Below are positions 2,956 through 40,025 of a DNA stretch of 64,000 bases, in pieces; the stretch's first letter is position 1; each line of letters starts with the position of its first letter. The position numbers were made by a program, and so were the translations under genes. Under the pieces are notes generated by a model. It saw only the letters and a program-made list of their open reading frames with translations. It was not told the DNA's origin and searched no databases. The stretch comes from Escherichia coli (GTDB lineage: Bacteria; Pseudomonadota; Gammaproteobacteria; Enterobacterales; Enterobacteriaceae), in the NCBI RefSeq assembly GCF_003991155.1, contig NZ_CP031295.1; one strand, given 5' to 3'.

Positions 2956-3177
2956 GTGAGTGATGAAGCCGATGAAGCATATTCAGTGACAGAACAACTG
3001 ACCATGACAGGAATAAACCGGATACGCCAGAAAATAAATGCTCATGGTATTCCTGTTTATCTCTGTGAAGCATGCGGAAATCCTATTCCGGAAGCCCGGC
3101 GGAAAATATTTCCCGGTGTGACGTTGTGCGTTGAATGTCAGGCGTATCAGGAAAGACAGAGAAAACATTATGCATAA
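2956..3177 (+). CDS. traR: TraR, DksA-like zinc-finger protein
   Basis: 73 aa with CxxC...CxxC (CEACGNP...CVECQ) C4 zinc finger. Confidence 0.8.
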   Translation: MSDEADEAYSVTEQLTMTGINRIRQKINAHGIPVYLCEACGNPIPEARRKIFPGVTLCVECQAYQERQRKHYA

Positions 3178-3336
3178 GTCAGTCGCAGAACATAGTGATT
3201 TAATTCCGGATGAACATGAGTGGATATTCAGAAAACAGAAATCTTTGTATATGCGCCGGGAAATGGCGCGTTAATTACAGGTATTCCCTTCATGGCTACC
3301 GCATTTCTCGCTTTATTTTTCAACTAAGGAATTCAT

Positions 3337-5964
3337 GTGAATAACCCACTTGAGGCCGTCACTCAGGCGGTTAACTCCCTCGTCACAGCACTGAAACTGC
3401 CTGACGAATCCGCAAAGGCCAATGAAGTTCTGGGCGAAATGAGCTTCCCGCAGTTCAGCCGTCTGCTGCCGTACCGTGATTACAACCAGGAATCCGGTCT
3501 GTTCATGAATGACACCACGATGGGCTTTATGCTGGAAGCCATCCCCATCAATGGGGCGAATGAGTCCATTGTGGAGGCCCTCGATCACATGCTGCGCACC
3601 AAACTGCCGCGCGGTATTCCGTTGTGTATCCATCTGATGTCCAGTCAGCTGGTTGGTGACAGGATTGAATACGGGCTGCGTGAGTTCTCCTGGTCAGGTG
3701 AACAGGCTGAACGGTTTAACGCCATTACCCGGGCCTATTATATGAAAGCGGCAGCGACACAGTTTCCGCTGCCGGAGGGGATGAATCTGCCCCTGACCCT
3801 GCGCCATTACCGGGTGTTTATCTCGTACTGTTCTCCTTCGAAGAAAAAAAGCCGGGCCGACATTCTGGAAATGGAAAACCTGGTGAAAATCATCCGGGCG
3901 TCGTTACAGGGGGCCAGTATCACCACACAGACGGTGGATGCACAGGCCTTTATCGATATTGTCGGGGAGATGATTAACCATAACCCGGACTCCCTGTATC
4001 CGAAAAGACGTCAGCTGGACCCGTATTCTGATCTGAATTATCAGTGTGTGGAGGACAGTTTTGATCTGAAAGTCCGGGCTGATTACCTGACGCTGGGCCT
4101 GCGTGAGAACGGCAGGAACAGCACGGCCCGCATCCTGAATTTCCATCTGGCCCGTAACCCGGAAATCGCCTTCCTGTGGAACATGGCCGACAACTACAGC
4201 AACCTGCTGAACCCGGAACTGTCCATCTCCTGTCCGTTCATCCTGACGCTGACTCTGGTGGTGGAAGACCAGGTGAAAACCCACAGCGAAGCCAACCTGA
4301 AGTACATGGACCTGGAGAAAAAGTCGAAGACCTCCTATGCCAAATGGTTTCCGTCCGTGGAGAAAGAGGCGAAGGAGTGGGGGGAACTGCGTCAGCGGCT
4401 GGGCTCCGGTCAGTCCTCTGTCGTGTCCTACTTCCTCAACATCACAGCATTCTGCAAGGACAATAATGAAACGGCGCTGGAAGTGGAGCAGGACATCCTG
4501 AACAGCTTCCGTAAAAACGGTTTTGAGCTGATTTCACCGCGCTTTAACCACATGCGCAATTTCCTGACCTGCCTGCCCTTTATGGCCGGGAAAGGGCTGT
4601 TTAAACAGTTGAAAGAGGCCGGAGTGGTTCAGCGCGCAGAGAGCTTTAATGTTGCCAACCTGATGCCGTTAGTGGCGGATAACCCCCTGACACCGGCAGG
4701 TCTGCTGGCACCCACCTACCGTAACCAGCTGGCGTTTATCGATATTTTCTTCCGGGGGATGAATAACACCAACTACAACATGGCGGTCTGTGGCACCTCC
4801 GGGGCCGGTAAAACCGGGCTGATACAGCCACTTATCCGCAGCGTGCTGGACTCCGGAGGCTTTGCCGTGGTGTTTGACATGGGGGATGGATACAAGTCCC
4901 TGTGTGAGAACATGGGCGGGGTGTATCTGGACGGTGAAACCCTGCGTTTTAACCCGTTTGCGAACATCACCGATATTGACCAGTCAGCGGAGCGTGTCCG
5001 TGACCAGTTGTCGGTGATGGCCAGCCCCAACGGTAACCTGGATGAAGTGCATGAAGGTCTGCTGCTGCAGGCGGTCAGGGCCTCCTGGCTGGCTAAAAAG
5101 AACAGGGCGCGCATCGATGATGTGGTGGATTTCCTGAAAAACGCCCGTGATAACGACCAGTATGTCGAGTCACCGACCATCCGCAGCCGTCTGGATGAAA
5201 TGATTGTCCTGCTGGATCAATATACCGCCGGCGGCACTTACGGCCGGTATTTTAACTCTGATGAGCCGTCCCTGCGGGATGATGCGAAAATGGTGGTGCT
5301 GGAGCTGGGCGGACTGGAAGACCGTCCGTCACTGCTGGTTGCGGTGATGTTCAGCCTCATTATTTACATCGAGAACAGGATGTACCGCACGCCGCGTAAC
5401 CTCAAAAAACTGAACGTCATTGATGAGGGATGGCGTCTGCTGGACTTCAAAAATCACAAGGTCGGTGAGTTTATTGAGAAAGGTTACCGTACCGCCCGCC
5501 GTCATACCGGTGCCTATATCACCATCACACAGAACATCGTCGACTTTGACTCTGACAAGGCCTCCAGTGCTGCCCGCGCGGCATGGGGTAACTCCTCCTA
5601 CAAAATTATCCTCAAACAGAGTGCGAAGGAGTTCGCGAAATACAACCAGCTGTATCCGGACCAGTTCCTGCCACTGCAGCGTGACATGATTGGTAAGTTC
5701 GGTGCGGCCAAAGATCAGTGGTTCAGTTCCTTCCTGCTGCAGGTGGAAAACCATTCCTCCTGGCACCGTCTGTTTGTGGACCCGTTAAGCCGCGCCATGT
5801 ACAGCTCTGACGGCCCGGATTTTGAGTTTGTGCAGCAGAAGCGTAAAGAGGGGCTGAGTATTCATGAGGCGGTATGGCAGCTGGCGTGGAAGAAGTCAGG
5901 GCCGGAGATGGCTTCGCTGGAAGCCTGGCTGGAAGAACATGAGAAATACAGGAGTGTGGCATGA
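3337..5964 (+). CDS. traC: TraC, VirB4-like T4SS ATPase (GTG start)
   Basis: 875-aa ORF, Walker A-like GTSGAGKT, size and position as in F. Confidence 0.9.
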   Translation: MNNPLEAVTQAVNSLVTALKLPDESAKANEVLGEMSFPQFSRLLPYRDYNQESGLFMNDTTMGFMLEAIPINGANESIVEALDHMLRTKLPRGIPLCIHLMSSQLVGDRIEYGLREFSWSGEQAERFNAITRAYYMKAAATQFPLPEGMNLPLTLRHYRVFISYCSPSKKKSRADILEMENLVKIIRASLQGASITTQTVDAQAFIDIVGEMINHNPDSLYPKRRQLDPYSDLNYQCVEDSFDLKVRADYLTLGLRENGRNSTARILNFHLARNPEIAFLWNMADNYSNLLNPELSISCPFILTLTLVVEDQVKTHSEANLKYMDLEKKSKTSYAKWFPSVEKEAKEWGELRQRLGSGQSSVVSYFLNITAFCKDNNETALEVEQDILNSFRKNGFELISPRFNHMRNFLTCLPFMAGKGLFKQLKEAGVVQRAESFNVANLMPLVADNPLTPAGLLAPTYRNQLAFIDIFFRGMNNTNYNMAVCGTSGAGKTGLIQPLIRSVLDSGGFAVVFDMGDGYKSLCENMGGVYLDGETLRFNPFANITDIDQSAERVRDQLSVMASPNGNLDEVHEGLLLQAVRASWLAKKNRARIDDVVDFLKNARDNDQYVESPTIRSRLDEMIVLLDQYTAGGTYGRYFNSDEPSLRDDAKMVVLELGGLEDRPSLLVAVMFSLIIYIENRMYRTPRNLKKLNVIDEGWRLLDFKNHKVGEFIEKGYRTARRHTGAYITITQNIVDFDSDKASSAARAAWGNSSYKIILKQSAKEFAKYNQLYPDQFLPLQRDMIGKFGAAKDQWFSSFLLQVENHSSWHRLFVDPLSRAMYSSDGPDFEFVQQKRKEGLSIHEAVWQLAWKKSGPEMASLEAWLEEHEKYRSVA

Positions 5965-30812: not shown

Positions 30813-31019
30813 ATGAAGTACCTTAACACTACTGATTGTAGCCTCTTCTTTGCTGAGAGGTCAAAGTTTATGACGAAATATGCCCTTATCGGGTTGCTCG
30901 CCGTGTGCGCCACGGTGTTGTGTTTTTCACTGATATTCAGGGAACGGTTATGTGAGCTGAATATTCACAGAGGAAATACAGTGGTGCAGGTAACTCTGGC
31001 CTACGAAGCACGGAAGTAA
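30813..31019 (+). CDS. srnB: Hok/Gef-family type I toxin reading frame (SrnB-like); toxin core 30870-31019 with overlapping leader ORF
   Basis: C-terminal ...LIGLLAVCATVLCFSLIFRERLCELNIHRGNTVVQVTLAYEARK matches Hok-family pattern (TM helix, LCEL, AYE). Confidence 0.7.
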   Translation: MKYLNTTDCSLFFAERSKFMTKYALIGLLAVCATVLCFSLIFRERLCELNIHRGNTVVQVTLAYEARK

Positions 31020-31302
31020 GCTGCCGGGCGGGGACGGAAGTCCCCGCTTTCCGGAAGTGTGAGGTATTTCAGGGGCAGACACCCTATATACCAGAAACAG
31101 CCGGTCCCGCCCGGGGCCGGCACCCTGGCTAAGGCATTTCCAGCTTTTCAGTCATTTCATTATCAAAATCACATTAAACGGTCGTAATCAGACATGATTT
31201 GTGCGCCAACACAGATCATCGTCACAACTTTCAAGTCGCTGATTTCAAAAAACTGTAGTATTCTCTGCGAAACGATCCCTGTTTGAGAATTGAGGAGGCG
31301 AG

Positions 31303-31560
31303 ATGTCGCAGACAGAAAATGCAGTGACTTCCTCATCAGGCACCAAGCGTACATACCGGAAAGGTAACCCTGTTCCGGCCAGAGAGAGGCAAAGAGCTTC
31401 TCTGGCTCGCAGAAGCAACACTCATAAGGCTTTTCATGCGGTTATTCAGGCCCGGTTAAAAGACAGGCTGAGTGAACTGGCGGATGAGGAAGGTATTACT
31501 CAGGCGCAGATGCTTGAAAAACTGATTGAATCAGAGCTGAAACGCAGAGCGACTTCGTAA
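31303..31560 (+). CDS. copB: CopB/RepA2 copy-number repressor of RepFIIA replicon
   Basis: 85 aa beginning [11 protein letters not shown] and ending ...[18 protein letters not shown], upstream of tap/repA1. Confidence 0.8.
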
Positions 31561-31694
31561 ATATTCACATTCTTGCTTATCTCAGGAGTGAGTGGTAGAT
31601 TGCTGATCGTTTAAGGAATTTTGTGGCTGGCCACGCCGTAAGGTGGCAGGGAACTGGTTCTGATGTGGATTTACAGGAGCCAGAAAAGCGAAAA

Positions 31695-31778
31695 CCCCGA
31701 TAATCTTCTTCAAGTTTGGCGACTAGAAAGATTACCGGGGCCCCATAAAACCGCATAGCCAACAATTCAGCTATGCGG
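31695..31778 (-). ncRNA. copA: Putative CopA antisense RNA / CopT target region (two stem-loops)
   Basis: Long imperfect inverted repeat 31695-31740 plus hairpin 31751-31778 just upstream of tap; strand and ends inferred from RepFIIA organisation. Confidence 0.35.
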
Positions 31779-31791
31779 GGAGTATAGTTAT

Positions 31792-31866
31792 ATGCCCGGA
31801 AAAGTTCAAGACTTCTTTCTGTGCTCACTCCTTCTGTGCATTGTAAGTGCAGGATGGTGTGGCTAA
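31792..31866 (+). CDS. tap: Tap (RepA6) leader peptide, 24 aa
   Basis: [24 protein letters not shown] read directly from sequence. Confidence 0.75.
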
Positions 31867-32333
31867 TCATGAAACACATTCAGTAATAGCGGGTGGGATT
31901 GAATCAGATCTTCACATTGATTCCAGCAAGTATCCTCACCCGTTTTGCAGCCTTCTCCAGAAAAGGGCTCATTTTGACTCCTTCAAGCATCTGATCTTCA
32001 TCAGAGGTTTGCTTGCAATAGCGCATGGCAAACGTAAAAATAAAATCAGCGCGTCGATGGTTAGTTTTTATGTTTCCCTCGTACAAGTAATGTGCGCACA
32101 CTACATCCCTGATACGAACAAAGTTAACTTATCTGTTAAAGAGCTTTCAGTTTGTAGTGGAGGTTCATACACTCGTGTTTGGAGAGCCCTCAAAACTCTT
32201 GATAATGATCTTCATCTCATCGCTTTTGATGGAGGAACCATCTGGTTCAGACCAGATATGTTCGAAACTTTACGTGTCGGCCCAGACGAGCTAGTTACCG
32301 CCCGTAGGAGGGGGAATAGTGTTGGAGGGGGAC

Positions 32334-33191
32334 ATGGCTGATCTCCTTCAAAAATACTATTCACAGGTTAAAAATCCGAATCCGGTGTTCACACCCCGTG
32401 AAGGTGCCGGAACGCTGAAGTTCTGCGAAAAACTGATGGAAAAGGCGGTGGGCTTCACCTCCCGTTTTGATTTCGCCATTCATGTGGCACATGCCCGTTC
32501 GAAGGGACTGCGTCGGCGCATGCCACCGGTACTGCGTCGCCGGGCTATTGATGCGCTGCTGCAGGGGCTGTGTTTTCACTATGACCCGCTGGCCAACCGC
32601 GTCCAGTGCTCCATCACTACGCTGGCCATTGAGTGCGGACTGGCGACGGAGTCTGCTGCCGGAAAACTCTCCATCACCCGGGCCTCCCGAGCCTTGACGT
32701 TCCTTGCAGAGCTGGGACTGATTACCTACCAGACGGAATATGATCCGCTTATCGGGTGCTACATTCCGACCGATATCACGTTCACACCGGCGTTATTTGC
32801 CGCCCTTGATGTGTCTGAGGATGCAGTGGTTGCTGCGCGCCGCAGTCGTGTTGAATGGGAAAACAGACAGCGCAAAAAGCAGGGGCTGGATACCCTGGGT
32901 ATGGATGAACTGATAGCGAAAGCCTGGCGTTTTGTGCGTGAGCGTTTCCGCAGTTACCAGACAGAGCTTAAGTCCCGTGGAATAAAGCGTGCCCGTGCGC
33001 GTCGTGATGCGAACAGGGAACGTCAGGATATCGTCACCCTGGTGAAACGGCAGCTGACGCGTGAAATCTCGGAAGGGCGCTTCACTGCCAATCGTGAGGC
33101 GGTAAAACGCGAAGTGGAGCGTCGTGTGAAAGAGCGCATGATTCTGTCACGTAACCGTAATTACAGCCGGCTGGCCACAGCTTCCCCCTGA
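32334..33191 (+). CDS. repA1: RepA1 replication initiator of RepFIIA-type replicon
   Basis: 285 codons from [27 protein letters not shown]...; C-terminus ...[12 protein letters not shown]. Confidence 0.85.
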
Positions 33192-33199
33192 AAGTGACC

Positions 33200-33500
33200 T
33201 CTTCTGAATAATCCGGCCCGCACCGGAGGCATTCGCACGCCTGAAGCCTGCCAGCGAACAAAAAAGCAGCACCTCATACAAAAAACAACCTCATCATCCA
33301 CCTTCTGGTGCATCTGGCCCCCCCTGTTTTTGATACAAAACACGCCTCACAGACGGGGAATTTTGCTTATCCACATTTAACTGCAATGGACTTCCCCATA
33401 AGGTTACAACCGTTCATGTCATAAAGCGCCAGGCGCCAGCCTTACAGGGTGCAATGTATCTTTTAAACACCTGTTTATATCTCCTTTAAACTACTTAATT
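33200..33500 (+). other. Putative oriR region with DnaA box TTATCCACA at 33367-33375
   Basis: Consensus DnaA box downstream of repA1 in AT-rich sequence. Confidence 0.4.
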
Positions 33501-34129
33501 ACATTCATTTAAAAAGAAAACCTATTCACTGCCTGTCCTGTGGACAGACAGATATGCACCTCCCACCGTAAACGGCGGGCCCCAACCGGAGCCACTTTAG
33601 TTACAACACACAAAACCAACCTCCAGAAAAACCCCGAACCAGCGCAGAACTGAAACCACAAAGCCCCTCCCTCATAACTGAAAAGCGGCCCCGCCCCGGC
33701 CCTTCGGGCCGGAACAGAGTCGCTTTTAATTATGAATGTTGTAACTACATCTTCATCGCTGTCAGTCTTCTCGCTGGAAGTTCTCAGTACACGCTCGTAA
33801 GCGGCCCTCACGGCCCGCTAACGCGGAGATACGCCCCGACTTCGGGTAAACCCTCGTCGGGACCACTCCGACCGCGCACAGAAGCTCTCTCATGGCTGAA
33901 AGCGGGTATGGTCTGGCAGGGCTGGGGATGGGTAAGGTGAAATCTATCAATCAGTACCGGCTTACGCCGGGCTTCGGCGGTTTTACTCCTGTATCATATG
34001 AAACAACAGAGTGCCGCCTTCCATGCCGCTGATGCGGCATATCCTGGTAACGATATCTGAATTGTTATACATGTGTATATACGTGGTAATGACAAAAATA
34101 GGACAAGTTAAAAATTTACAGGCGATGCA

Positions 34130-34780
34130 ATGATTCAAACACGTAATCAATATCTGCAGTTTATGCTGGTTATGCTGGCTGCATGGGGCATTAGTTGGGG
34201 AGCCAGATTTGTCATGGAGCAGGCCGTTCTGCTTTATGGATCAGGAAAAAACTATTTGTTCTTCAGTCATGGTACTGTTCTGATGTACCTGCTGTGTGTT
34301 TTCCTGGTATACCGCCGTTGGATAGCTCCGCTACCGGTCGTTGGTCAGCTGCGCAACGTTGGCGTACCGTGGCTGGTCGGTGCGATGGCCGTGGTGTATG
34401 TCGGTGTATTTCTGCTCGGTAAGGCGCTGGCTCTGCCTGCTGAGCCATTTATGACGAAACTTTTTGCCGATAAGTCCATACCTGACGTGATCCTGACGTT
34501 GCTGACCATCTTTATCCTTGCCCCGTTGAATGAGGAAACGCTGTTCCGGGGGATTATGCTGAACGTCTTCCGTTCACGGTACTGCTGGACGATGTGGCTG
34601 GGGGCGCTGATAACGTCGTTGTTGTTCGTCGCCGCGCACAGCCAGTATCAGAACCTGCTGACACTGGCAGAACTGTTCGGTGGGTTGATTACATCAGTGG
34701 CCAGGATCAGAAGTGGTGGCCTGCTGCTGCCGGTATTGCTGCATATGGAAGCAACCACGCTGGGTTTACTGTTTGGTTGA
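34130..34780 (+). CDS. CPBP-family intramembrane protease (tir-like)
   Basis: 216-aa polytopic protein with EExxxR-like (NEETLFRG) and HxxxH-like motifs. Confidence 0.65.
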   Translation: MIQTRNQYLQFMLVMLAAWGISWGARFVMEQAVLLYGSGKNYLFFSHGTVLMYLLCVFLVYRRWIAPLPVVGQLRNVGVPWLVGAMAVVYVGVFLLGKALALPAEPFMTKLFADKSIPDVILTLLTIFILAPLNEETLFRGIMLNVFRSRYCWTMWLGALITSLLFVAAHSQYQNLLTLAELFGGLITSVARIRSGGLLLPVLLHMEATTLGLLFG

Positions 34781-37542: not shown

Positions 37543-39043
37543 ACTTCGACGACTACCTGCTGCCGGCCGAGAAGTTCGCCGCACTCAAGCGCGAGCAGGC
37601 CCTGCCCCTGGCGATCAACCCGAACAGCGACCAGTACCTGGAAGAGCGTTTGCAGCTGCTGGACGAGCAGTTGGCCACCGTCACCCGCCTGGCCAAGGAC
37701 AACGAGCTGCCCGATGCCATCCTCACCGAGTCAGGGCTGAAAATCACCCCGCTGGATGCGGCGGTGCCGGATCGGGCGCAGGCGCTGATCGACCAAACCA
37801 GCCAGTTACTGCCGCGCATCAAGATCACCGAACTGCTGATGGACGTGGACGACTGGACGGGCTTCAGCCGCCACTTCACCCACTTGAAGGACGGGGCCGA
37901 GGCCAAAGACAGGACGTTGCTGCTGTCCGCAATCCTCGGTGATGCGATCAACCTCGGGCTGACCAAGATGGCCGAGTCGAGCCCCGGCCTGACCTACGCC
38001 AAGCTGTCCTGGCTGCAAGCCTGGCACATCCGCGACGAAACCTATTCGGCGGCCTTGGCCGAGCTGGTCAACCACCAGTATCGCCACGCCTTTGCCGCCC
38101 ACTGGGGCGACGGCACGACCTCATCCTCCGATGGCCAGCGCTTCCGCGCGGGTGGCCGGGGCGAGAGCACCGGGCACGTCAACCAAGTACGGTAGCGAGC
38201 GGGACGGCTGTTCTATACCCATATCTCCGACCAGTACGCGCCGTTCAGCACCCGCGTGGTGAATGTCGGCGTCCGCGATTCCACCTATGTGCTCGACGGC
38301 CTGCTGTACCACGAGTCCGACCTGCGGATCGAGGCACTACACCGACACGGCCGGCTTCACCGATCACGTCTTTGCCCTGATGCACCTGCTAGGCTTCCGC
38401 TTCGCGCCGCGCATCCGCGACCTCGGCGAAACCAAGCTGTACGTGCCGCAGGGCGTGCAAGCTACCCGACGTTGCGCCCGCTGATCGGCGGCACCCTGAA
38501 CATCAAGCACGTGCGTGCCCACTGGGACGACATCCTGCGCGGCCAGCTCGATCAAGCAGGGCACCGTCACCGCCTCGCTGATGCTGCGCAAGCTCGGCAG
38601 CTACCCGCGCCAGAACGGACTGGCCGTGGCCCTGCGCGAGCTGGGCCGGATCGAGCGCACGCTGTTCATCCTGGACTGGCTGCAAAGTGTTGAACTGCGC
38701 CGCCGCGTGCATGCCGGCCTGAACAAAGGTGAGGCGCGCAACTCGCTGGCGAGGCGGTGTTCTTCAACCGCCTTGGGGAAATCAGGATCGGAGCTTCGAG
38801 CAGCAGCGCTACGGCCAGCGGCCTCAACACGGTGACGGCGGCTATCGTGCTGTGGAACACGGGTACACGGAACGCCACCCGGGGTTGGTCGAGGCCGGCA
38901 AGCCGGTGGACGGCGAGCTGCTGCAATTCCTGTCGCCGCTGGGCTGGGAGCACATCAACCTAACCGGCGATTACGTCTGGCGGCAGAGCCGCAGACTGGA
39001 AGACGGGAAGTTTCGGCCCTTACGGATGCCCGGAAAACCTTAG
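37543..39043 (+). pseudogene. tnpA: Tn1721/Tn21-subgroup tnpA 3' fragment (copy A), 5'-truncated by IS26, with several frameshifts
   Basis: Tn3-family transposase sequence spread over at least 4 frames; ends at the Tn1721 IR. Confidence 0.75.
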
Positions 39044-39076
39044 CGTACGATTTTTTCCGAATTCTGCGGGCTCCCC
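39039..39076 (+). repeat. Tn1721 38-bp terminal inverted repeat
   Basis: Reverse complement of GGGGAGCCCGCAGAATTCGGAAAAAATCGTACGCTAAG. Confidence 0.7.
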
Positions 39077-39374
39077 TATCTCATCTGCGCAAGGCAGAAC
39101 GTGAAGACGGCCGCCCTGGACCTCGCCCGCGAGCGCCAGGCGCACGAGGCCGGCGCGCGGACCCGCGCCACGGCCCACGAGCGGACGCCGCAGCAGGAGC
39201 GCCAGAAGGCCGCCAGAGAGGCCGAGCGCGGCCGTGAGGCTTGGACGCTAGGGCAGGGCATGAAAAAGCCCGTAGCGGGCTGCTACGGGCGTCTGACGCG
39301 GTGGAAAGGGGGAGGGGATGTTGTCTACATGGCTCTGCTGTAGTGAGTGGGTTGCGCTCCGGCAGCGGTCCTGA

Positions 39375-40025
39375 TCAATCGTCACCCTTTCTCGGTCCTT
39401 CAACGTTCCTGACAACGAGCCTCCTTTTCGCCAATCCATCGACAATCACCGCGAGTCCCTGCTCGAACGCTGCGTCCGGATCGGCTTCGTCGAAGGCGTC
39501 TATCGCGGCCCGCAACAGCGGCGAGAGCGGAGCCTGTTCAACGGTGCCGCCGCGCTCGCCGGCATCGCTGTCGCCGGCCTGCTCCTCAAGCACGGCCCCA
39601 ACAGTGAAGTAGCTGATTGTCATCAGCGCATTGACGGCGTCCCCGGCCGAAAAACCCGCCTCGCAGAGGAAGCGAAGCTGCGCGTCGGCCGTTTCCATCT
39701 GCGGTGCGCCCGGTCGCGTGCCGGCATGGATGCGCGCGCCATCGCGGTAGGCGAGCAGCGCCTGCCTGAAGCTGCGGGCATTCCCGATCAGAAATGAGCG
39801 CCAGTCGTCGTCGGCTCTCGGCACCGAATGCGTATGATTCTCCGCCAGCATGGCTTCGGCCAGTGCGTCGAGCAGCGCCCGCTTGTTCCTGAAGTGCCAG
39901 TAAAGCGCCGGCTGCTGAACCCCCAACCGTTCCGCCAGTTTGCGTGTCGTCAGACCGTCTACGCCGACCTCGTTCAACAGGTCCAGGGCGGCACGGATCA
40001 CTGTATTCGGCTGCAACTTTGTCAT
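39375..40025 (-). CDS. tetR: TetR(A) tetracycline repressor
   Basis: 216 aa from MTKLQPNTVIRAALDLLNEVG; divergent from tetA. Confidence 0.9.
   Translation of the reverse strand: MTKLQPNTVIRAALDLLNEVGVDGLTTRKLAERLGVQQPALYWHFRNKRALLDALAEAMLAENHTHSVPRADDDWRSFLIGNARSFRQALLAYRDGARIHAGTRPGAPQMETADAQLRFLCEAGFSAGDAVNALMTISYFTVGAVLEEQAGDSDAGERGGTVEQAPLSPLLRAAIDAFDEADPDAAFEQGLAVIVDGLAKRRLVVRNVEGPRKGDD

Follow-up and report, generated by a model that had tools for sequence, protein, structure and literature searches.

A conserved tap-coupled gene for a truncated RepA paralogue in RepFIC-type IncFII replicons and its possible place in a three-cistron translational relay

Organization of the replicon

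The 64,000-nucleotide stretch of Escherichia coli DNA considered here (contig NZ_CP031295.1; henceforth the window, meaning this whole stretch) carries an IncFII-type plasmid replicon in which an additional open reading frame (ORF) of 160 codons lies between tap, the gene for the leader peptide, and repA1, the gene for the replication initiator. The original prediction, which was made from the letters alone, had placed tap, the ORF, and repA1 at coordinates that all hold on rereading the region and listing its ORFs (Table 1). The tap gene is intact; a GTG at 31859 overlaps its stop codon (GTGGCTAA) and opens the 160-codon frame, which runs to a TGA at 32339-32341 and in turn overlaps the repA1 start, an ATG, by 8 nucleotides (nt) (ATGGCTGA). 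A direct overlap between tap and repA is not found here, repA1 beginning 468 nt past the end of tap. The ORF start at 31847, as first listed, is merely an upstream in-frame GTG and is replaced by the GTG at 31859, whose GTG or TTG equivalent is the start in all related lineages. Likewise, the initial description of the locus as a RepFIIA control region is right in that CopA, copB, and an IncFII RepA are present, but the region is of the RepFIC type, being 96.4% identical to the corresponding part of the F plasmid and only 80% identical to that of R100.

Table 1. Features of the replicon, with positions in the window
Feature	Position	Strand	Evidence
copB/repA2 repressor gene, 85 aa	31303..31560	+	ORF; identical protein named "replication regulatory protein RepA" by PGAP; related-locus homologues match PF10723
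CopA antisense RNA	31686..31774	-	Rfam RF00042, 93.6 bits (gathering score 60), E 1e-17, full length
copA promoter-like site TTGAAC-17-TATACT	31781..31809	-	Consensus match only
tap leader peptide, 24 aa	31792..31866	+	Same protein as WP_001442103.1 "RepA leader peptide Tap"; F has identical Tap
Predicted hairpin within tap, ORF Shine-Dalgarno sequence (AGGA) and GTG paired to upstream tap sequence	31826..31861	+	ViennaRNA; same in R100
160-codon ORF, WP_001273588.1 "hypothetical protein," diverged, C-terminally truncated RepA paralogue	31859..32341	+	BLASTP, hhalign, AFDB50
9-bp repeat copy 1, TGGCTAATC, left edge of extra segment	31860..31868	+	blastn break point versus R100
ORF codons 65-135, predicted winged helix-turn-helix core	32051..32263	+	AlphaFold2, Foldseek
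Predicted junction hairpin over repA1 Shine-Dalgarno sequence, AUG, and ORF UGA	32314..32362	+	RNA folding, -21.3 kcal/mol
repA1 strong Shine-Dalgarno sequence GGAGGGGG, doubling as code for the Gly-rich tail of the ORF	32324..32331	+	Read from sequence
repA1 initiator, 285 aa	32334..33191	+	TIGR03474 incFII_RepA, 580 bits (cutoff 446.9)
9-bp repeat copy 2, TGGCTGATC, where R100 homology restarts	32335..32343	+	blastn
Region 3' of repA1, R100 homologous, CIS/oriR by homology only	33192..34200	+	blastn

Comparison with R100 and F, and distribution

In R100 (locus L010), tap (38746-38820) directly overlaps repA (38813-39670), and alignment of the window with this canonical control region finds no such spacer there. 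Blastn resolves the match between the two into a block at 80% identity (31200-31868) and a single high-scoring segment pair at 94.6% identity (32335-34200), with an extra segment of 466 bp in the window between the break at 31868 and the restart at 32335. An imperfect 9-bp direct repeat, TGGCTAATC and TGGCTGATC, marks the two edges of this segment; its counterpart in R100, TGACTGATC, is the start of repA. The F plasmid, on the other hand, matches window positions 31200-32132 over 935 bp, up to the end of Tn1000, which interrupts its RepFIC remnant inside the ORF, so that the match extends 274 nt into the ORF. E. coli NCM3722, whose F is free of Tn1000, has the chain of genes intact, with an ORF that differs from that of the window by 2 nt. 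Further, hundreds of plasmids, among them pAPEC-O1-ColBM, pVM01, pVir68, and pO83_CORR, have an 841-bp region at 100% identity; PGAP annotates these identical regions in the order tap, "hypothetical protein" WP_001273588.1, and repA, and their PLSDB type is IncFIC.

The ORF was found in 525 of 5426 complete E. coli genomes, i.e., about one in 10, and in 528 plasmid records of PLSDB. Nearly all E. coli ORF records (525 of 529) are at least 99% identical and mostly full length. Among control regions that lack the ORF, the closest (Salmonella pSLT-like) reach about 94.6% identity, and we saw none in which the ORF was missing from between near-identical flanks. As judged from these sequence comparisons, the extra segment is best regarded as a conserved cistron typical of RepFIC-type IncFII replicons and not as a sporadic or recent insertion. 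Of the readings first offered for the locus, that of a variant replicon is hence borne out: the architecture is the RepFIC/IncFIC(FII) one of F and of ColV/ColBM-type plasmids, and it is kept in distant lineages of Enterobacteriaceae. A small number of the match sites in complete E. coli genomes (12 of 539) are chromosomal and presumably represent integrated F-type plasmids.

The RepFIC object itself is not new. The replicon has been known since 1984 to 1987, its sequence is in all databases, and the RepFIC of P307 was reportedly described by Saadi and coworkers in 1984 as an autonomous basic replicon. The window itself has an F-type conjugative backbone near pO83_CORR-like plasmids. A tblastn search with the F RepFIB and RepE initiators found no second replicon within the 64 kb; related plasmids have FIB elsewhere.

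Windowed identity reveals a finer mosaic within repA1. Over its first 42 nt, identity is 62 to 67% to R100 versus 81 to 95% to the ORF-bearing lineages, whereas from nt 43 onward (window position 32376) it is 89 to 100% to R100 and lower to the ORF-bearing lineages. The mosaic borders, at 31868/31869 and 32375/32376, are sharp. Because the identity of repA1 switches so sharply at nt 43, the ORF, its junction hairpin with repA, and the first 14 codons of repA (31869-32375) would appear to form a traveling unit that recombines onto different repA/ori bodies. The first codons of repA encode M-A/T-D-L-L-Q and contain GAUCUCCUUC, the R100 counterpart of which is GAUCUUCACC. The R100-like repA body from nt 43 onward also accounts for the label "repFIIA-repFIC" given to the identical region of pAPEC-1, with "repA, a component of repFIC," but without analysis (Mellata et al. 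2009; PMC2626276).

The ORF product as a truncated RepA paralogue

A BLASTP comparison of the ORF product with the adjacent RepA1 yields 33% identity over 98 aa (E 1e-8). In a profile-profile comparison of the ORF family and RepA, hhalign recovers the relationship with 97.5% probability (E 5e-12) and shows residues 22-153 of the ORF to be collinear with residues 23-172 of the 285-residue RepA. The matches found by Foldseek in AFDB50 are IncFII RepA proteins (E from 6.5e-6, TM-score about 0.6), and those in the PDB are all generic winged helix-turn-helix regulators with weak E-values. The AlphaFold2 model of the ORF product is confident in the core only (residues 60-135, pLDDT 80 to 91), where it displays a helix-strand-helix-helix-wing arrangement comprised of helices at 65-80, 93-100, and 104-117 and a beta-hairpin at 121-130. 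The recognition helix, SYTRVWRALKTLD, is invariant across the lineages described below. These comparisons recover homology to the N-terminal domain of RepA; they do not place the ORF product in the full-length IncFII RepA family.

Hence, we interpret the short protein as a diverged paralogue of the N-terminal ~60% of RepA, i.e., the predicted winged-helix DNA-binding domain, which lacks the basic C-terminal ~110 residues. This paralogy had escaped the original prediction, which had allowed that the segment might be part of a known RepA N-terminal variant; the ORF, however, does not extend RepA at its N terminus but stands as a cistron by itself. No closer full-length "donor" RepA for the ORF was found among 5.8 billion clustered proteins or 1.84 billion representatives.

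Certain other signals overlapping the ORF were set aside. A 65-aa antisense ORF (31904-32101, minus strand), part of which is annotated in F, is broken in loci L003 and L005, and the codon-position pattern favors the sense frame; we rejected it as spurious. RefSeq has a minus-strand call over the CopA region (WP_223195197.1, "replication protein RepA," L001 2518-2769 in NC_009837) and a minus-strand hypothetical inside the ORF (WP_289845690.1, L011 3962-4084 in F). Both look spurious, the antisense frame not being conserved across lineages. Two proteins with GGxGxD-type calcium-binding repeats, P0030 (732 aa) and P0032 (872 aa), each aligned in 4 to 7 stretches with residues ~94-156 of the ORF (E 5e-5 to 5e-4), and these matches are probably spurious and driven by the repeats. 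The last codons of the ORF were also considered as a copy of the last codons of tap, implying an origin by duplication; the z-scores against shuffles (-1.2 to 2.7) are mostly nonsignificant, and only the 9-bp start-of-gene repeat is common to the two.

Conservation and selection

Members of the ORF family retain a length of 159 to 160 aa down to 65% identity and come from Salmonella salamae, Citrobacter, Lelliottia, Klebsiella, and metagenomes. The comparisons that follow use eight lineages with 65 to 88% protein identity, namely, the window and seven further loci, all seven of which retain the gene order copB-tap-ORF-repA, with a repA of 285 aa. In all eight, the ORF starts with a GTG or TTG that overlaps the tap stop, and its Shine-Dalgarno (SD) sequence and hairpin are the same as those of R100 repA. 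At the other end, the lineages share the arrangement TGGAGG(G/A)G-N3-ATGnCTGA. One length variant is seen in locus L012 (3001-3600; also in L013), in which the ORF has 199 aa owing to a 120-nt in-frame insertion after codon 3 (QNKSQAKWDGVPSDEQIRLPNLADSEQNVFAYSPAAKKK) and overlaps repA by ATGA instead of ATGnCTGA. The N terminus of the ORF tolerates large insertions, as seen in L012, while both couplings and the frame survive.

Variable sites are distributed over the first, second, and third codon positions of the ORF as 56/47/90, a coding signature of the sense frame. The ratio of nonsynonymous to synonymous divergence (dN/dS, or omega) is 0.19 to 0.47 for the whole ORF and 0.13 to 0.34 for codons 28-150, and in none of the eight pairs does the bootstrap confidence interval for this core include 1; constraint is relaxed in the N-terminal tail. 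At the nucleotide level, identity among the lineages is 76 to 92% for the ORF, 71 to 83% for copA/tap, 62 to 94% for repA, and 52 to 84% for the ori region, making the ORF the best-conserved DNA of the replicon. In every lineage, its GC content (43 to 45%) is lower than that of repA (54 to 57.5%). A discrete conserved nucleotide element was considered as the source of the low synonymous divergence of the ORF and rejected, there being no invariant run of more than 12 nt and the conservation being diffuse. A plausible cause of the low synonymous divergence is horizontal spread of the module. On the strength of these patterns, the short protein is itself under purifying selection and hence probably functional. 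That an extra protein might be expressed under copy-number control, another of the initial suggestions, thereby gains support by inference from the tap-coupled start, the SD-sequestering hairpin, the sense coding signature, and the low dN/dS of the core.

Coupling junctions and a proposed relay

ViennaRNA predicts the same tap-internal stem, CUCCUUCUG(U/C)GC...GUGCAGGAUGG, in the window and in R100. The role of an SD-sequestering hairpin within tap is established in R1/R100. The predicted tap hairpin, with its paired SD (AGGA), does not differ between R100 and the window, so that the initiation region of the ORF has the very design known for repA in those plasmids. A second hairpin is predicted at the junction of the ORF with repA1, in which GGAGGGGG pairs with UCUCCUUC, and the AUG of repA1 and the UGA of the ORF fall in the loop and stem; its 3' arm is formed by codons 3-6 of repA1 (GAUCUCCUUC). 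An equivalent hairpin, with an invariant core, is predicted in all eight lineages (-12 to -23 kcal/mol), and if three loci of a second family, described below, are added, a hairpin over the SD is predicted in all 11 loci folded (-12 to -24 kcal/mol). The repA SD, TGGAGG(G/A)G, is conserved in all lineages. The complementary anti-SD, CUCCUU, in repA codons 4-5 is restricted to ORF-bearing replicons, whereas R100 has CUUCAC. Further, the overlap of stop and start is conserved in 13 of 13 contexts across the two families, in the form of ATGnCTGA, ATGA, TAATG, or TGATG, and is kept after indels that change both length and frame. A consensus scan found no promoter-like site inside the ORF, and an internal promoter that bypasses CopA was rejected on this ground.

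A deviation at this junction was observed in one record, L018 (NZ_CP027589.1), where the G5 run within the repA SD has lost one nucleotide (GGAGGGGGA to GGAGGGGA; equivalent to window position 32327), which brings the ORF into the frame of repA, giving a predicted ORF-RepA fusion of 445 aa; PGAP then annotates no ORF. Either a sequencing error in the homopolymer or a natural fusion allele could account for this deletion.

In R1/R100, CopA RNA blocks the translation of tap, and the tap step is established for R1. We propose that CopA would act in the same way here. When tap is translated, ribosomes would open the tap hairpin and start the ORF at the weak GTG or TTG that overlaps the tap stop. 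Ribosomes finishing the ORF at its UGA would have melted the second hairpin, which would otherwise hide the strong SD and the AUG of repA1, and those or fresh ribosomes would then start repA1 eight nt upstream of the end of the stop codon. RepA1 would thus still be controlled by CopA, via a two-step translational relay, and the short protein would come under the same control. The likeliest role for the short protein would be to bind DNA or RepA and so modulate initiation. The steps beyond CopA-tap, i.e., the opening of the ORF by tap and of repA1 by the ORF, are ones that we infer from the conserved anatomy. We consider it reasonably probable that the locus is organized as such a three-cistron translational relay, with a short DNA-binding protein that is probably functional.

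A second family of short RepA-like proteins

The best matches of the ORF outside its own family are P0028, P0029, and P0031 (31 to 37% identity), which are short and cover only positions ~4-175 of the RepA profile. The second family consists of proteins of 185 to 241 aa, down to 47% identity, from plasmids of Pantoea ananatis and [Erwinia] mediterraneensis and from metagenomes. In each of the five contexts seen, the stop of the short gene overlaps the start of a gene for a 339-aa initiator of the RepA_IncFII_LM family; three of these contexts (L014, L016, and L017) were read in detail. The true initiator in these Erwiniaceae loci is the 339-aa gene that comes after the short gene. Nonetheless, P0028, P0034, P0033, and P0038, which have 185 to 241 aa and correspond to the N-terminal ~60% of RepA only, are named "plasmid replication initiator RepA" by NCBI/JGI.

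L014 and L016 have IncB-type control (Rfam PK-repBA, 94 to 98 bits), with a 17-aa leader whose stop overlaps the GTG of the short gene. In all three of the loci read, a hairpin involving C/U-rich early codons is predicted around the SD and AUG of the initiator. Identity between the short protein and IncFII RepA reaches 44%, and the initiator encoded after it belongs to another type. In a neighbor-joining tree, the two short families form separate clades (100% each), the second grouping weakly (64%) with the N-terminal domains of IncFII RepA; a single origin for both, which we considered, is therefore not claimed. That a layout of leader, half-initiator, and initiator recurs points either to selection for this layout or to a shared way of producing it through recombination within repA.

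A distinct arrangement occurs in L017 (LR026981.1, from [Erwinia] mediterraneensis; 3001-3726), where a CopT-like stem-loop is followed by a tap-like leader (MLREKQSRLCLVRPCNSG) fused in frame to the short RepA-N. In this locus, the antisense RNA would act directly at the start of the short protein. The gene call starts further upstream still and is probably too long.

One possibility, which we advance only tentatively, is that the short RepA-N regulates initiation in trans, as an anti-initiator or partner with the origin, the repA promoter, or RepA itself as its target. Copy-number control or incompatibility in RepFIC-type plasmids would then have a further layer, made up of protein. The layout of leader, half-initiator, and initiator might then be a recurrent and independently evolved control module across the IncFII/IncB/IncL-M initiator superfamily.

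Relation to known systems

The replicon in the window shares with R1/R100 (RepFIIA) the CopA RNA, copB, a 24-aa tap, the tap hairpin, the 8-nt overlap geometry, and an IncFII RepA, with the body of repA and the ori 94.6% identical to those of R100. It differs in that tap is coupled to the 160-codon ORF and not to repA, that repA starts at an ATG of its own behind a strong SD, with its codons 3-6 taking part in a second predicted hairpin, and that the control region is only 80% identical. It is 96.4% identical to the RepFIC of F across 935 bp, a stretch that reaches 274 nt into the ORF, has an identical Tap, and is of the type that PLSDB calls IncFIC, but the body of its repA is R100-like from nt 43.

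Parallels are also suggested by the IncB/I-complex replicons. Praszkier, Wilson, and Pittard are said to have found that IncB has RNAI and that translation of the repB (repY) leader together with a pseudoknot activates the translation of repA (repZ). L014 and L016 likewise have PK-repBA and a 17-aa leader with a stop that overlaps the GTG of the next gene. There, however, the leader-coupled gene encodes a RepA-N of 185 to 188 aa, and the 339-aa initiator is the third cistron; the control in the window, for its part, is by CopA and not of the pseudoknot type. Short isoforms of initiators that modulate replication are known from R6K (the short forms of pi) and RK2 (TrfA-33/44). They are produced by internal initiation within a single gene and have the sequence of the initiator minus N-terminal parts. 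As in those cases, a shorter relative of the initiator would be made along with the full-length one from one transcript in the window; unlike them, the short protein here has a cistron of its own upstream, is missing the C-terminal part, and shares only about 30% identity with the initiator.

In the literature searched, which did not include the original RepFIC papers (Saadi et al. 1987; Maas et al. 1991), so that an earlier description is possible, we found no account of the ORF as a truncated RepA paralogue, of its two coupling junctions, of the purifying selection on it, or of the parallel in a second replicon family. WP_001273588 is not mentioned in the literature searched.

Weighing the relay against other explanations

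Several points weigh against a relay that includes a functional short protein. As regards the protein, Pfam has zero matches for the ORF, and its NCBIfam score is far under the cutoff (TIGR03474, 17 bits versus 446.9, over profile positions 21-124 only). For both the ORF and RepA, sequence searches of Pfam, PADLOC, and the PDB were empty. The omega of repA (0.05 to 0.25) is below that of the ORF (~0.3), and the synonymous divergence of the ORF (dS 0.18 to 0.64) is about one-third of that of repA for the same pairs (0.68 to 2.2). The higher omega and low dS fit a younger, recombining module with partly relaxed constraint no less than they fit a strongly selected protein. As regards the junction, the invariance of the hairpin core makes covariation unobtainable, which neither supports nor refutes the hairpin; its sequence is also constrained by two overlapping frames and the SD; and the 151-nt junction region folds no better than shuffles (z -0.65). 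The ATG of repA1 and its very strong SD would, at face value, permit independent initiation. Finally, all E. coli carriers whose typing was checked also have FIB or FIA, so that the replicon need not be functional there.

Among the alternatives, the one that fares best, though we regard it as rather unlikely, is that the ORF is the leftover of an older repA, behind the first ~155 codons of which a new repA-ori cassette was placed, so that its translation would only ferry ribosomes to repA1 and the protein would be functionless. A history of this kind is in keeping with the mosaic of FIC-type control, ORF module, and R100-like repA from nt 43, and with the second family, where a short protein resembling IncFII RepA next to an initiator of a different type is just what an initiator swap would be expected to leave behind. 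The separate clades of the two short families, the excess of the ORF omega over that of repA together with the relaxed N-terminal tail, and a drifted composition (44% GC versus 56% for repA) can be read in the same way. However, a pure spacer is expected to have an omega near 1, and the core values of 0.13 to 0.34 have confidence intervals that exclude this. Nor would a spacer account for the invariance of the recognition helix across lineages or for the retention of a length of 159 to 160 aa over deep divergence, when it could shrink. Moreover, no other segment of the replicon is as well conserved as the ORF, and the closest ORF-less relatives stand at 94.6% identity, with no ORF-less derivative having near-identical flanks.

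It is improbable, in our estimation, that the strong SD and the ATG of repA1 suffice for its translation independently of tap, with CopA acting weakly or only via mRNA cleavage, decay, or polarity. What speaks for such independence is that the ATG with GGAGGGGG five nt upstream is stronger than the GTG with AGGA of R100 and that the hairpin is a prediction within a wider region that folds no better than shuffles. Unregulated RepA is known from R1 copy mutants to cause runaway replication and would be expected to do so here, yet the arrangement is stable and common. The stop/start overlap, kept in all 13 contexts even after frame-changing indels, the restriction of the anti-SD CUCCUU to ORF-bearing replicons, and the want of a promoter-like site in the consensus scan of the ORF likewise argue for coupling. 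For these reasons, including the placement of the SD and AUG in a predicted hairpin, the initial suggestion of an insertion that uncouples repA1 from CopA/tap control is not supported.

Least of all do we expect the replicon to be dead or auxiliary, with the ORF a tolerated lesion in multireplicon plasmids that are kept by RepFIB/FIA: the cooccurrence with FIB or FIA in the E. coli carriers checked, the destruction of the F copy by Tn1000 without harm, and the one record with a deletion fusing the ORF to repA (L018) would fit such decay, but purifying selection on the adjacent repA is strong, eight divergent lineages retain copB, CopA, tap, and both junctions in intact form, 525 of the 529 E. 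coli records are nearly identical and mostly full length, and the RepFIC of P307, as noted above, is said to replicate autonomously.

Flanking genes

Upstream of the replicon lies a gene for a Hok/Gef toxin of the srnB type (30867-31019, plus strand), and downstream lies one for a CPBP-family intramembrane protease (34130-34780, plus strand); both flanks are as in R100 and pCREC-544_1.

Implications

The control of IncFII plasmids by CopA, tap, and RepA is the textbook model of regulation by antisense RNA and the basis of typing for key resistance and virulence plasmids of Enterobacteriaceae. About one-tenth of complete E. coli genomes, including those with ColV/ColBM virulence plasmids and with Tn1000-free F, have a conserved extra gene in the middle of this circuit. 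The FII primers of IncF replicon typing, in the sequences that we take to be theirs, match positions 31603-31622 and 31844-31861. With these sites, the amplicon would stop at the left edge of the extra segment, and standard FII/FIC typing would be blind to the ORF. If both the relay and a function for the short protein hold true, copy-number control in these plasmids would gain an extra step and an extra player. This could affect incompatibility, curing strategies aimed at copA/copB, and models for the swapping of initiator/origin cassettes.

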